Source: an uncultured virus (IMG/VR IMGVR_UViG_3300043256_000236) (Duplodnaviria; Heunggongvirae; Uroviricota; Caudoviricetes). From it: a DNA stretch of 64,000 nucleotides. The notes beneath the pieces were generated by a model, which was not told the DNA's origin, made no database searches, and saw only the letters and a list, made by a program, of their open reading frames with translations. The stretch spans positions 1-64,000 of the IMG/VR virus record IMGVR_UViG_3300043256_000236; one strand, written 5' to 3'. The position numbers and the translations under genes were made by a program. Of the stretch, positions 2,981 through 56,949 are shown piece after piece (position 1 is the stretch's first letter; each line of letters opens with the position of its first letter).

Positions 2981-3244
2981 ATGAAGAAGAGTGGGTGGAA
3001 CAAAGCCTCGTCATACTACACGTATGTTTTTATGGGTAGTGTCTTATTGAGCTGTGGTCGTATTCGGCTCCGTTCTGGCAGATTTGTTTGGCGCAGTAGA
3101 TCTACTTTTGAAGGTAATTGTAAAATTGGTCCTGAGAGATCATCCCTTGAATTGGCCAAATATGATGCTGAGAGATTAGGTGCTGAATTATTAATTGATT
3201 GCCAAAGTGCACTGGATAGAGAAAAAGGAAATTTCGGACTCTAA
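2981..3244 (+). CDS. hypothetical protein
   Basis: Probable start ATG2981 just after the upstream stop. Confidence 0.5.
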   Translation: MKKSGWNKASSYYTYVFMGSVLLSCGRIRLRSGRFVWRSRSTFEGNCKIGPERSSLELAKYDAERLGAELLIDCQSALDREKGNFGL

Positions 3245-3277
3245 AATGTTTCTGTTCGATGCTATAGGCGGTTATTA

Positions 3278-49863: not shown

Positions 49864-50015
49864 GGCGACGGTTTTTGTGTTTATTTTGTTGGGGCAGCAC
49901 ACGACAGGTAGTCGGCTGAGGCGGGGTGTCCCTAAAACCGCCAAGTCCAGATATTATGGACCTATGGACTAAAGTCACAGACAGGGGGCCGCTGGTCGAA
50001 TCCAGCCCGTCGCTA
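49864..50015 (+). ncRNA. tRNA-like RNA (acceptor stem and T-arm) with a pseudoknotted insert
   Basis: GGCGACGG/CCGTCGCT-A, GCTGG-TCGAAT-CCAGC, internal GGGGCA/TGTCCC and GGCGG/CCGCC. Confidence 0.55.
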
Positions 50016-51638: not shown

Positions 51639-51667
51639 GCAACAAATACTGTTGTTCGGGGTATAAT
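51639..51667 (+). promoter_or_regulatory. Class-I promoter
   Basis: GCAACA-N15-GGTATAAT. Confidence 0.65.
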
Positions 51668-51673
51668 GATATT

Positions 51674-51815
51674 GTGATGAACATACATAGACAATATTTG
51701 GCCACCGGAGTATTCCACCATCTTAATCCATGCGCATTTGGTAGTGGTGCGGGCTAAGGTCTGTTTGTTATTTGATAGATCTTTTGGCCCGTGAGAAATA
51801 CTCACGGGGTTTTTT
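51674..51815 (+). promoter_or_regulatory. putative attenuator 1: 26-aa leader ORF (51677-51757), antiterminator (51749-51792), terminator (51788-51815)
   Basis: Mutually exclusive hairpins share CCCGT; leader stop lies in the antiterminator 5' arm. Confidence 0.65.
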
Positions 51816-53862: not shown

Positions 53863-54498
53863 ATGAAATTGATCGATTTGGTAGGGAAAAGATTCGGAAG
53901 ATTGGTTGTCCTGAAAAGAGTCGATGATGATAAAAATAAAAACAGGAGATGGTTATGTCTGTGTTACTGTGGTAAAAAGAAAATTGTTCATGGCAGCAGC
54001 CTTTATGCTGGCAGAACAAAAAGTTGTGGATGTTTACAGAAGGAAATAGTGAGAAAACTGTTCACTAAACATGGGCACAGTAAATGTGCAATCTACAACA
54101 TATGGGCAAGCATGAATCAGAGATGTATCAATCCAAACAACAAAGAATACCACAATTATGGTGGAAGAGGAATTAATGTCTGTAAACGATGGAGAAATTC
54201 GTTTCCTAATTTTTTAAAGGATATGGGAGAACGATCAAATAAAAAATACACACTTGAAAGAACTAATAACAATCGGGGATATTGTAAATCTAATTGTGAA
54301 TGGGCGACATCGAAACAGAATAGCAGGAATAGGCGAAACAACAGGCCATTAACCCATAACGGTAAGACACAACTTCTAATAGAATGGGCTGAAGAAACCG
54401 GGATCGATAGACAAACTATTGCTACAAGAATAGATAGATACGGGTGGTCTATAACAAAGGCTTTGACGACTCCTATCAGAAAGAAGAAAAATTTATGA
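53863..54498 (+). CDS. free-standing HNH-family homing endonuclease-like protein (paralog of 44285)
   Basis: DLVGKRFGRL, WLCLCYCG, SCGC, YGGRGINVC, TLERTNNNRGY...NCEWA. Confidence 0.8.
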   Translation: MKLIDLVGKRFGRLVVLKRVDDDKNKNRRWLCLCYCGKKKIVHGSSLYAGRTKSCGCLQKEIVRKLFTKHGHSKCAIYNIWASMNQRCINPNNKEYHNYGGRGINVCKRWRNSFPNFLKDMGERSNKKYTLERTNNNRGYCKSNCEWATSKQNSRNRRNNRPLTHNGKTQLLIEWAEETGIDRQTIATRIDRYGWSITKALTTPIRKKKNL

Positions 54499-55541
54499 TA
54501 TTCTCCGAAATAGAAAAACGAGATAAGCTAGTTGAAGAAAAATTACTTAGGTGTGATGACCAAGGTGACTTGCGAGTATATTCCTACACTAATTGGTGCA
54601 AAATATGGAATGATATTACCATGAATAGCAGAGGTATTATTTTTAATCGCAAAACCGGTGAAATAATTAGTAGGCCATTTCCTAAATTTTTCAATATGGA
54701 TCAGACAGCCGAGACTCAGGAGAGAAACCTTCCGTGGCAAGACGGATTTAGGATTTTCCAAAAATACGATGGATGGCTAGGAATATTATACAGGGATGGA
54801 GGACAATACAGAATAGCTACTAGGGGGTCGTTCCAAAGCACAGGGGCATTGTGGGCTACTGAATTCCTGAAAGAATATGACCTTACTGGATTGCCAGACG
54901 AGGTAACGTTGCTGTTCGAACTTATCTGTCCTGCGACCAAGATCGTCGTCGACTACCATAATAGGGAAGAATTAGTATTGTTGGCTGCTTACAATAGACA
55001 TACCGGTGAAGAGTATGGGTGGGAGCAAGTTGAAGCGTGGGGTGACAAGTTCGGATTTGGTGTAGCTGATTCTTATGATAGTAATCACCTTAAATATTGT
55101 CGTTTGCAAATCGAATCTACATCTGGTCTGGAACTTGAGGGTTTTGTCATTAGGTTTAATAATGGCTTGCGAGTAAAGATCAAGTCGGACGACTACTTCC
55201 GTAGAAGTAAAATGCGGAGCCATTTGACTTTGTTGACAATTTGGGAAAATATGGTGTGCGGAGAAGTTCCTCAAGAATTCTGGGACGCAATAGATGACGA
55301 TTATCATGATGCTTTGAGTAAGATAACAGTAGCGATGGAGTCTCGCTATTTCGAGATTCGACAAGAAATCAATCATCAGTTTGTAAGTATAGTTGACATT
55401 CAAGATCGTAAGGAATTTGCTATCGCAGCTCAAAAGTTGAGCCATACACCTGCGATGTTCGCTCGCCGAGACAAGCAAGAGAAGCGTGTTGACGATTACG
55501 TTATGAAATTTATTCGTCCACATAACAATATAATAGGGTAG
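54495..55541 (+). CDS. T4 Rnl1/RnlA-family RNA ligase
   Basis: RGIIF...SRPFPKFFN, motif I QKYDG, ATRGSF, TLLFE, EGFVI, RVKIKSDDY. Confidence 0.88.
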   Translation: MIFSEIEKRDKLVEEKLLRCDDQGDLRVYSYTNWCKIWNDITMNSRGIIFNRKTGEIISRPFPKFFNMDQTAETQERNLPWQDGFRIFQKYDGWLGILYRDGGQYRIATRGSFQSTGALWATEFLKEYDLTGLPDEVTLLFELICPATKIVVDYHNREELVLLAAYNRHTGEEYGWEQVEAWGDKFGFGVADSYDSNHLKYCRLQIESTSGLELEGFVIRFNNGLRVKIKSDDYFRRSKMRSHLTLLTIWENMVCGEVPQEFWDAIDDDYHDALSKITVAMESRYFEIRQEINHQFVSIVDIQDRKEFAIAAQKLSHTPAMFARRDKQEKRVDDYVMKFIRPHNNIIG

Positions 55542-55625: not shown

Positions 55626-55721
55626 GATAGTGCATGGCGATGAGTAGCTCTCGGGGTGTATGGTTCGAATCCATACGTATAAATTGGCACCTGAATCCGG
55701 TTCAAGTCCGGGTCGCTATCA
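55626..55721 (+). ncRNA. tRNA-like RNA with two T-arms and no anticodon arm
   Basis: GATAGTG/CGCTATC-A; GTATGG-TTCGAAT-CCATAC and CCGG-TTCAAGT-CCGG. Confidence 0.55.
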
Positions 55722-55797: not shown

Positions 55798-55923
55798 TTG
55801 AACAGAAATACCGTCACAACTGAATAAGTGACGGTAAAAGTTCCAGTACACTTCGTAATAAGTGACTGTGTACAAACATCGGTACTTTGTGATATATGTC
55901 GACATTATTGTGTATAATGTATT

Positions 55924-56121
55924 GTGATGTCAGAATTTATTGAAATACATCGTGAAACAGGAATTCCATGTTTTGAGTGTGGTGAACGATCTGGTATGGA
56001 TTGTCCAGGTCGGAGACCAGATGAGGCCACACGTTGTACAGTCTGTCTGGAAAAATTCATGAAAATCGAGCAGCAACTACAATCATCCCATGATCAACGG
56101 TCTAAGGATCGTCTGGGGTAG
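55924..56121 (+). CDS. leaderless Cys-rich ORF with C-terminal Gln cluster (putative attenuator leader)
   Basis: Starts 6 nt after GTGTATAAT; CAG CAA CTA CAA...CAA near its end. Confidence 0.55.
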   Translation: MMSEFIEIHRETGIPCFECGERSGMDCPGRRPDEATRCTVCLEKFMKIEQQLQSSHDQRSKDRLG

Positions 56122-56178
56122 ACTGTGTAGACTGAGATACGCAGAACCGGATGGTCCAATGGACTGTCCGGTTTTTTT
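56106..56178 (+). promoter_or_regulatory. putative attenuator 2 (antiterminator/terminator)
   Basis: GGATCGTCTGG can pair with CCGGATGGTCC, the 5' arm of terminator CCGGATGGTCC-AAT-GGACTGTCCGG-T7. Confidence 0.65.
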
Positions 56179-56219
56179 GTGCGCATTGGAAGGTACTGAT
56201 CCTCTTCCTTCCGTTATTC

Positions 56220-56290
56220 GGCCCTGTGGTGTAATGGTACCCCGCCTGCCTTTGGAGCAGGAGAACTAAGTTCGATTCTTAGCCGGGCCG
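56220..56290 (+). tRNA. tRNA-Gln (TTG), somewhat divergent
   Basis: CCTGC-CTTTGGA-GCAGG, CTAAG-TTCGATT-CTTAG; weak D stem. Confidence 0.75.
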
Positions 56291-56397
56291 TTTTCCTTGC
56301 CTTTTGGTGTATAAAAATAAGGTAGATGAATCTGTATCGCCTTCAGTTTTTGTGAACTGGAATCTTTACAGCCTTATTTTAAGAAAGAGGTAAAGTT

Positions 56398-56949
56398 ATG
56401 AGTTTAGTAACAGACAATTGGGCGGCGAATCTTAATCCAGTACCGAAACCAGGTCAGATGTACAGGACACTCAGTGCTACAGCCGTATCAGGTTCAGCCG
56501 TAACAGATACAGAAGCGTTCTTCACTAAAAGTTGCCCTTTTCCAATCAAGATTGTTGGATTTGAAGTACAAGCTGTTTCGATGTCCGGTGGAGGATTCAG
56601 CGGTAGCGGTTCTGCTCTGACTGTCGCCCTACAGAGTTCCAATGAAGTTGATGTCTCTCCAGCAGCTCCCACTGCTGTTGTATGGGATACTGTGGTATCT
56701 GTTGACGCATCTGGTTCCGCGCAAAGTACTGATAAGCTAATGTTCTCTGCTCCTGGCAACGTCAGTGGCTTGTTAAATCCTGATATGGACCAGTCGTTTG
56801 TTGCTGTACCCAAGGGTGGTTCTTTGAGGGCAACTCTTTCCGCCCAAGCTGCCGATGCTCTAGGTGTCGCAGGTTCTACTCCAGTTGAACTTCTTGCTGT
56901 TGTAGATTTTGTACCAACAGATTTAAAAACACAACGATATAGTTGGTAG
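56398..56949 (+). CDS. putative virion structural protein
   Basis: Ser/Ala/Val-rich beta protein, late motif at 56307, own terminator. Confidence 0.55.
   Translation: MSLVTDNWAANLNPVPKPGQMYRTLSATAVSGSAVTDTEAFFTKSCPFPIKIVGFEVQAVSMSGGGFSGSGSALTVALQSSNEVDVSPAAPTAVVWDTVVSVDASGSAQSTDKLMFSAPGNVSGLLNPDMDQSFVAVPKGGSLRATLSAQAADALGVAGSTPVELLAVVDFVPTDLKTQRYSW

Follow-up and report, generated by a model that had tools for sequence, protein, structure and literature searches.

The stretch of DNA analyzed here (the window) comprises the first 64 kb (64,000 nucleotides, nt) of the 122,944-base record IMGVR_UViG_3300043256_000236 of an uncultured virus, for which CheckV estimated a completeness of 74%. A cluster of ten transfer RNA (tRNA) genes occupies 49.8-56.3 kb of the window and includes a gene for a T4 Rnl1-like RNA ligase. 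The element under study lies at 55,889 to 56,291, where a predicted promoter is followed by a small open reading frame (ORF) with a Gln- and Ser-rich tail, a strong intrinsic terminator, and a gene for tRNA-Gln(UUG). This arrangement is probably that of a translated leader that controls the transcription of phage tRNA genes by attenuation. The features of the element are listed below, where labels such as L042 denote individual loci and A4 an alignment of leader sequences.

55889..55918, plus strand: predicted promoter, with a -35-like GTGATA, a spacer of 18 nt, and GTGTATAAT at 55910-55918 (10 of 12 in a consensus scan)
55927..56121, plus strand: fused ORF of 65 amino acids (aa), a zinc-ribbon-like part (CxxC…CxxC) and the leader in frame; homolog start MEFIEIH in L042
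56059..56121, plus strand: leader part MKIEQQLQSSHDQRSKDRLG*, from an in-frame ATG aligned with the starts of free-standing leaders (alignment A4 and codon table)
56071..56097, plus strand: putative regulatory run CAG CAA CTA CAA TCA TCC CAT GAT CAA (codon table)
56077..56102, plus strand: region 1, the 5' strand of the predicted anti-antiterminator helix, overlapping the Gln/Ser codons (minimum-free-energy folds)
56106..56130, plus strand: region 2, the 3' strand of the 1:2 helix, whose first 11 nt (56106-56116) are the antiterminator strand and which holds the stop codon TAG (56119-56121)
56123..56144, plus strand: bridging hairpin, CTGTGTA (56123-29) with TACGCAG (56138-44)
56147..56157, plus strand: region 3, the 5' arm of the terminator, able to pair with region 2 or region 4
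56143..56178, plus strand: intrinsic terminator, with a stem of 13-15 base pairs (bp), an AAT loop, and seven T (56172-56178)
56188..56212, plus strand: remnant of tRNA-Ser(UGA), its 5' acceptor end and 3' T-arm/acceptor end with an internal deletion of ~60 nt
56219..56291, plus strand: tRNA-Gln(UUG), the remaining putative regulated gene of this phage (ARAGORN; Rfam tRNA model, 52.7 bits, L001 1921-1991)
56307..56314, plus strand: next GTGTATAA promoter motif, heading a gene for a 183-aa protein and taken as the end of the regulated unit; present in all relatives examined

An earlier reading of this DNA, made from its letters without database searches (the sequence-only reading), had proposed attenuation of tRNA-Gln through Gln codons. 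The promoter, the 65-aa ORF, the Gln codons, an 11-bp pairing, the bridging hairpin, the terminator, and the tRNA-Gln gene that it named were all recovered where it had placed them, and tRNA-Gln(UUG) was indeed the only RNA gene called by ARAGORN and Rfam in the window before the GTGTATAA motif at 56307. The 65-aa ORF starts at GTG 55924 (the ORF list) or ATG 55927 and stops at TAG 56119-56121, and all four of its Gln codons (CAG 56071 and CAA 56074, 56080, and 56095) fall within its last 16 codons. The ATG at 55927 is located 9 nt past the -10 hexamer and has no Shine-Dalgarno sequence (SD), and the ORF is plausibly leaderless. For the zinc-ribbon-like ORF, no Pfam family was found and only a weak PHROG match was obtained (E = 0.016).

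The GTGTATAA motif recurs 16 times in the window against an expectation of 2.95, a count attained by none of 100 shuffles, and the copies closest to the element are at 55910, 56307, and 57019. It was also present upstream of the leader, or of the ORF preceding the leader, in relatives, and is regarded as a predicted recurrent promoter motif of these phages. According to the sequence-only reading, a promoter of tRNA-Gln itself at 56180-56219 would have spoken against attenuation. None was detected between the terminator and the tRNA, as a sigma-70 scan and a motif search of 56179-56218 revealed neither a promoter-like site nor a copy of GTGTATAA.

To collect relatives, the 65-aa protein and the conserved 183-aa protein encoded downstream were used as queries, and 8 viral and 34 metagenome loci were obtained. 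After the removal of duplicates, 16 distinct loci with the Gln-rich element remained, including that of the window. No cultured phage in the phage collection matched 55800-56400 in a distant-mode blastn search or the 358-aa neighbour in a tblastn search. In most of the relatives, the Gln-rich element was a separate mini-ORF that had a start codon of its own, usually also an SD, and was followed by a strong intrinsic terminator. The leader was exactly 23 codons long in 14 of the 16 loci, with the consensus peptide M-K-L-Q-Q-Q-S-S-Q-S-S-S-Q-R-x-x-x-R-L-G-x-x-V-stop and either ATG or GTG as the start codon, and an SD core (GGAG, GAGG, or AGGA) was found in 9 of the 12 free-standing leaders that had upstream sequence. 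For example, the zinc-ribbon ORF of L003 stops at 3177 and is followed by a separate 23-codon ORF at 3188-3259. The zinc-ribbon ORF was fused in frame to the leader in the window, in its near-identical twin L002, and in L042, and a different ORF was fused to the leader of L058, likewise in frame; thus wherever an upstream ORF ran into the leader (the window, L042, and L058), it did so in the frame of the leader (3/3 loci). The 65-aa leader ORF of the sequence-only reading therefore exists, but as a fusion, and its Gln-rich tail is a separate 23-codon mini-ORF in most relatives.

The run of the relatives reads CAA CAG CAA TCA TCC CAR TCN AGT AGT CAA. Variation inside the run was confined to third codon positions and was synonymous throughout (CAA/CAG; TCG/TCT/TCA), so that the run appears to be constrained as codons. 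In a diverged subgroup composed of L042 and L058, the run was reordered (QSQSQSSQS or SQSQSQ) with its Gln/Ser composition retained. Gln and Ser account for 3.5% and 7.4% of the phage codons, compared with up to 10 consecutive Gln/Ser codons in the leader, and every run of at least 8 Gln/Ser residues in the six frames of 276,590 bases was a leader. In the window, only four Gln and three Ser codons are left ahead of tRNA-Gln. Hence, the Gln codons that had been proposed as the regulatory cluster are present, but the cluster consists of Gln plus Ser, and tRNA-Ser genes are among its likely ancestral targets.

A first pattern scan of viral contigs returned 23 stretches, 19 of which were chance matches in unrelated coding DNA. 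A stricter leader pattern found no stretch among 185,579 species genomes and four stretches in viral contigs; three of these were on contigs already among the relatives, and the fourth (L069) was the viral-collection record of the metagenome contig L044. No similar leaders were found before other tRNA groups in the window and the relatives.

The tRNA genes called by ARAGORN between the terminator and the next GTGTATAA promoter were compared among the 16 loci.

L036, L044, L047, L067: Ser(UGA), Ser(GCU), Gln(UUG)
L042: Ser(UGA), Ser(GCU), Gln(UUG), and additionally Gln(CUG)
L043, L066: Ser(UGA), Gln(UUG)
L053: Ser(UGA), Ser(GCU)
L062: Ser(GCU), Gln(UUG), behind an inserted ORF
Window, L003, L011, L064: Gln(UUG) only
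L007, L057, L058: no downstream tRNA

Hence, Ser(UGA), Ser(GCU), and/or Gln (UUG or CUG) tRNAs followed the leader in 13 of the 16 loci, and the slot never held a tRNA of another type. The Ser/Gln tRNAs of the slot were never seen without the leader, with L039 and L048 unscorable as their sequences are cut upstream. A T-run was found within 160 nt upstream of 10 of the 13 heads of Ser/Gln-slot groups, whereas none of the 16 heads belonging to other tRNA groups of the clade had one. In eight loci, the distance from the end of the T-run to tRNA-Ser(UGA) was 15-16 nt, which leaves no room for a promoter. The remnant of tRNA-Ser(UGA) in the window, where ARAGORN calls no tRNA at 56188-56212, was recognized by pairwise alignment to the intact gene of L036, and degenerate Ser-like sequences were also present in L011 and L064. 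The ancestral regulated genes were thus probably tRNA-Ser(UGA), tRNA-Ser(GCU), and tRNA-Gln(UUG), and the codons of the run are those read by these three tRNAs, with the exception of TCC.

Two other features of the slot were observed. A near-perfect, AT-rich palindrome of ~28 nt (TTCTATGG-GTATATATAC-CCATAGAA) is inserted between tRNA-Ser(UGA) and tRNA-Ser(GCU) at 2190-2235 of L011 and also in L044, L047, L053, L064, L039, and L048; it may serve in processing as a hairpin, bind a protein, or act as a promoter, and a promoter here would speak against control by the leader. In L062, an inserted ORF at 500-700, which has a sigma-70-like promoter (TTGACA…TATACAAT), separates the attenuator terminator from the Ser/Gln tRNAs, so that the tRNAs of this phage would no longer be coupled to the leader. 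The Ser-like sequence of L011 also matched the tRNA-Sec model below threshold (32.2 bits against a gathering score of 47).

The terminator hairpin at 56143-56175 has a folding energy of -24.8 kcal/mol (z = -5.8), which none of 200 shuffles matched, while a simple terminator scan did not list the terminator at 56143-56178. The 11-bp pairing is formed by GGATCGTCTGG (56106-56116) with CCGGATGGTCC (56147-56157) and includes three G-U pairs; its duplex energy of -18.3 kcal/mol was attained by none of 500 dinucleotide shuffles of the leader. To compare these structures among relatives, 14 leader sequences were aligned with MAFFT (alignment A4) and a consensus was computed with RNAalifold. The leader of the window is longer by 6 nt upstream and shorter by 6 nt within the run, and its row of A4 was therefore aligned without gaps and is mis-registered in columns 12-36; the 1:2 helix of the window was judged from its own fold instead.

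The consensus structure comprised a long helix of region 1 with region 2, including an inner hairpin (ACGGYC/GRYCGT), and the terminator. The 1:2 helices occupy columns 12-15:65-68, 22-26:56-60, and 39-44:49-54, and three pairs of the inner hairpin covary. The terminator helix (columns 99-113 with 118-132) was 97.6% paired and the bridging helix (columns 65-71 with 80-86) was 87.4% paired. Taken together, the terminator conformer, including helix 1:2, was paired in 97.4% of 418 cells as compared to 31-49% in slid controls; six of its pairs changed on both sides, and none of 500 shuffles attained its pairing or its covariation score. The alternative antiterminator (columns 49-58 with 103-112) was paired in 139 of 140 cells, as compared to 15-50% in slid controls, so that the pairing proposed from the window is kept in its homologs. 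Its percentage of pairing was attained by 10 and its covariation score by 7 of 500 shuffles, and one of its pairs was compensated on both sides. In every sequence (14/14), the best duplex between the leader and a terminator arm formed at the same place, with energies of -15.5 to -21.0 kcal/mol that were matched by 0-31 in 500 shuffles. L042 and L058 kept the antiterminator in a different sequence, GGUCGC with GCGACY.

Positions shared by all three helices were particularly informative. For the chain of columns 42:51:110:121, 11 sequences have G-C-G-C/T, the window has G-T-G-C, where a G-U pair keeps the pairing, and L043 and L066 have A-T-A-T. All four positions have therefore changed in one lineage with helices 1:2, 2:3, and 3:4 still paired. 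The adjoining chain 43:50:111:120 showed six combinations, each compatible with all three helices. In addition, the peptide over the inner hairpin was free to vary (RPRG, RSLD, RLKS, or RSKD, as in the variants QRPRGRLG, QRSLDRLG, and QRLKSRLG) and the hairpin was retained. Because the peptide varies while the hairpin is kept, this part of the leader seems to be constrained as RNA. Three mutually exclusive helices thus appear to be conserved, namely 1:2, the antiterminator 2:3, and the terminator 3:4, which bears out in the relatives the trp/his-type geometry, with cognate codons ahead of phage tRNAs, that the sequence-only reading had recognized.

The effect of a translating ribosome was modeled in silico by masking a footprint (A site -18 to +12) at each codon of the 14 sequences, either in transcripts truncated before the 3' arm of the terminator or in full-length RNA at equilibrium. 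In truncated transcripts, the antiterminator had a probability of at least 0.80 in all 14 sequences when any of codons 10-13 was in the A site, of 0.00-0.59 at codon 14, and of 0.00 in all 14 from codon 15 to the stop. With no ribosome, its probability was at most 0.28 in 11 of the 14, the exceptions being the window (0.95), L036 (0.99), and L067 (0.61). In the full-length model, the antiterminator exceeded 0.5 only in L007, L036, and L044, and solely with the ribosome at Gln/Ser codons. As equilibrium folding favours the terminator, any switch must be kinetic. Classical attenuators, including that of trp, are understood as kinetic switches. Calculations of this kind are unable to prove a switch.

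The element is best explained as a ribosome-mediated leader-peptide transcription attenuator of the trp/his type that responds to two amino acids, Gln and Ser, and controls phage tRNA genes; we assign this explanation a probability of about 0.65, based on sequence comparison. It has a conserved short leader ORF with a start codon and, in most loci, an SD; a cluster of codons cognate to the downstream tRNAs; an intrinsic terminator between the leader and the tRNAs without a promoter in between; an antiterminator (2:3) mutually exclusive with the terminator (3:4); and an anti-antiterminator (1:2) whose 5' strand carries the regulatory codons. It departs from the known range of such attenuators in its targets, which are tRNA genes rather than genes for amino-acid biosynthesis or aminoacyl-tRNA synthetases. 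This architecture, its conservation and covariation, and the link in identity between leader codons and tRNAs are observed directly. From them we infer that the leader is translated, that ribosomes stall on it, that read-through is conditional, and that a physiological signal triggers it.

In the proposed mechanism, transcription would begin at the GTGTATAAT promoter and a ribosome would translate into the Gln/Ser stretch, which forms region 1 of the 1:2 helix. If these codons are read quickly, the ribosome would reach the stop codon and cover region 2, the 3:4 terminator would form, and transcription would end ~15-45 nt upstream of the tRNA genes. If charged tRNA-Gln or tRNA-Ser is scarce, reading would be slow and the ribosome would stall on region 1, which would free region 2 for the 2:3 antiterminator pairing. 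RNA polymerase would then enter tRNA-Ser(UGA), tRNA-Ser(GCU), and tRNA-Gln(UUG), which read most of those codons. The loop would thus act as a negative feedback on decoding capacity. According to the sequence-only reading, the phage would make its tRNA-Gln only when host Gln-tRNA is depleted or cleaved. A simple autoregulation of decoding capacity fits equally well, and the sensing of tRNA depletion or of a defence may be the purpose of the element.

Several observations weigh against attenuation. Three of the 16 leaders (L007, L057, and L058) look intact and have no downstream tRNA, and every leader contains TCC, a codon outside the standard decoding range of the three tRNAs. In L003, L043, and L066, tRNA-Ser(GCU) was lost and AGT AGT was kept, so codons and tRNAs do not co-vary tightly. 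The covariation consists of few events in related sequences, with the double change at 51:110 confined to a single lineage, and kinship alone can let sequences exceed shuffles without any structure. In full-length RNA at equilibrium, the terminator prevailed despite a stalled ribosome in 11 of the 14 sequences. The window copy is itself atypical: it has lost the two AGT Ser codons (AGT AGT) of its relatives, its internal ATG has no SD, its 1:2 helix is retained in a shifted register and is weaker, its antiterminator reaches 0.95 in the truncated transcript without any ribosome, and it peaks at only 0.25 at equilibrium. The window copy is a derived, decayed form, in which the leader was fused to a zinc-ribbon ORF, its Ser part was reduced, and only tRNA-Gln was left, and working regulation is less certain here than in the full versions.

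Three other explanations were weighed against the attenuator. The element could be an ordinary end-of-unit terminator after a small protein gene, in which the peptide from the Gln/Ser-rich tail or mini-ORF has a separate function, or no function, and constant leak-through gives rise to the tRNAs. This would agree with the terminator persisting alone in L009 and L045, both without the leader and the tRNAs, with the three leaders that lack a downstream tRNA, and with the equilibrium folds, which favour the terminator under nearly all ribosome masks. It leaves unexplained, however, the conserved antiterminator (139/140 cells) and the four-way covariation, the RNA hairpin kept under a varying peptide, the exact match between leader codons and tRNA identity, and the fact that only the Ser/Gln group follows a terminator (10/13 vs 0/16 heads), and we consider it unlikely. 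Still less probable is an RNA switch independent of translation, in which a protein, a tRNA, or a metabolite chooses between 2:3 and 3:4, or in which the terminated RNA of ~130 nt is itself the product. In its favour, the run shows high nucleotide conservation that extends to positions with no predicted pairing, any signal able to release region 2 could operate the alternative helices, and attenuator RNAs are reported in one study to be capable of acting in trans (PMC6614838). Against such a switch stand the lack of any Rfam family on the leader, T-box and glutamine riboswitches included, the conserved start codon and SD with exchange of ATG and GTG, the limitation of variation in the run to synonymous third positions, and the in-frame position of all three fusions; the reordered but still Gln/Ser-rich run of L042 and L058 also argues for codon content over an RNA motif.

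The remaining explanation retains a genuine leader-peptide attenuator that senses Ser/Gln supply or general translation stress and directs it mainly at the downstream block, that is, the 183-aa gene and beyond, with the tRNAs as passengers. In L007, L057, and L058, the leader and terminator are kept without tRNAs directly upstream of the 183-aa gene, and the tRNA content of the slot is very fluid, ranging from three to none. In all of the 17 aligned loci (17/17), however, the 183-aa gene possesses a conserved GTGTATAA promoter of its own together with a structured 5' untranslated region, and the slot is occupied only by Ser and Gln tRNAs that match the leader codons, which makes this explanation hardly probable.

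The attenuator favoured here resembles the trpL, hisL, leuL, and multivalent thr and ilvGMEDA leaders in its short translated leader with regulatory codons overlapping region 1, and in its mutually exclusive 1:2, 2:3, and 3:4 helices with a terminator before the regulated genes. The thr and ilv leaders also sense more than one amino acid, as would be the case here. In contrast, those leaders regulate biosynthetic enzymes, while the putative targets here are tRNA genes; product and sensed molecule would then be of one class, and the feedback would be direct. The element is also phage-borne, and three loci, that of the window among them, have the leader fused to a longer ORF upstream. The pheM attenuator of pheST, encoding phenylalanyl-tRNA synthetase, likewise uses a leader peptide and acts on the translation apparatus to raise charged tRNA; it is chromosomal and controls a synthetase, in contrast to the tRNA itself in a phage. 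T-box riboswitches are also terminator/antiterminator switches that respond to tRNA status, but they bind uncharged tRNA directly without a ribosome, and the leader described here is far shorter.

Known regulatory RNAs were also searched for. A T-box riboswitch had no cmscan match at E up to 1 in L001, L003, L007, L009, and L011, and no Rfam covariance model of a glutamine riboswitch (glnA RNA or Downstream-peptide motif) matched. At E up to 1, only tRNAs were found by Rfam on the leader-bearing loci, apart from two sub-threshold matches, to tRNA-Sec (see above) and to sau-5971. The latter, on the leader of L007, scored 30.9 bits against a threshold of 90 and was taken as chance.

The purpose of phage tRNAs is debated, with codon supply, host shut-off, and escape from tRNA-cleaving defence under consideration. 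Leader-peptide attenuators, such as that of his, respond to the level and modification of tRNA besides amino-acid supply. A response of the trp attenuator to tRNA level or modification is indicated in another study (PMC13434334). Phage-encoded tRNAs that replace or supplement those of the host have been described in the context of tRNA-targeting defence, where a tRNA of T5 counters PARIS (PMC11464382) and anticodon-loop variants of phage tRNAs serve as a counter-measure (PMC10264068); the abstracts of both concern the action of the tRNAs, not control of their expression, and describe no sensing circuit. In full-text searches of the literature, with old scanned papers outside their range, no leader-peptide control of tRNA genes was found, and a paper on defence nucleases yielded nothing about tRNAs for Ser or Gln. 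Early sequence papers on the tRNA-Phe genes of E. coli (pheU, pheV) may have dealt with attenuator-like leaders. As far as could be found, control of the expression of phage tRNA genes is undescribed, and the feedback logic is established for genes of amino-acid synthesis with no report found for tRNA genes.

If attenuation is confirmed, a leader written in the codons of the downstream tRNAs would provide direct feedback control of tRNA supply. The question of when a phage needs its own tRNAs would become testable by a simple reporter, and the element would represent a natural, compact sensor of codon-specific decoding capacity. A broader proposal, which we regard as possible but doubtful, is that the element is a phage-borne, codon-by-codon sensor of Ser (UCA, UCG, AGU) and Gln (CAA, CAG) decoding that induces replacement tRNAs once host shut-off, codon mismatch, or tRNA-cleaving defence nucleases have lowered the host pool. 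In this proposal, codon-matched leader attenuators that gate tRNA arrays in phages and some bacteria would form a wider class, so far undescribed, with the element as one member.

Additional features were observed around the element. Another promoter, GGGGTATAAT, is located in 51655-51815 of the window and starts with TATTGTGATG like the promoter at 55910; downstream of it are a small ORF and, at 51749 and 51788, two hairpins resembling terminators. The region may constitute a further leaderless unit of small size, or else a gene for a small RNA. In L044 (795-895), L047 (420-520), and L035 (1320-1400), a conserved unit of ~60 nt comes after a GTGTATAA promoter and has a hairpin and a T-run at its end. 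In L044 and L047, the unit directly precedes the SD of the leader; in L035, which has lost the leader and tRNAs by deletion, it is found by itself. It may be a small RNA gene.

Within the tRNA cluster, the gene at 54444-55541 encodes the T4 Rnl1-like RNA ligase (PF09511, E = 6.9e-21; phrog_562) and ends 8 nt before tRNA-Gly; the ligase is a candidate for a tRNA-repair function. A tRNA-Ser(CGA) was called by ARAGORN at 55634-55720, where no Rfam tRNA-model match was obtained at E up to 1. The sequence contains two T-arm-like hairpins and is conserved in L035, and it may represent an unusual tRNA or another structured RNA. Similarly, a tRNA-like 3' end, with a T-arm and an acceptor-like part, was found at 49865-50015 right after tRNA-Met, without an ARAGORN call. 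Beyond the cluster, the 5' untranslated region of the 183-aa gene (56315-56397), which follows the GTGTATAA motif, contains a hairpin flanked by repeated GAATC…GCCTT motifs. This hairpin was conserved in all 17 relatives of alignment A5, for which RNAalifold predicted 17 pairs, nine of them with two-sided compensatory changes.

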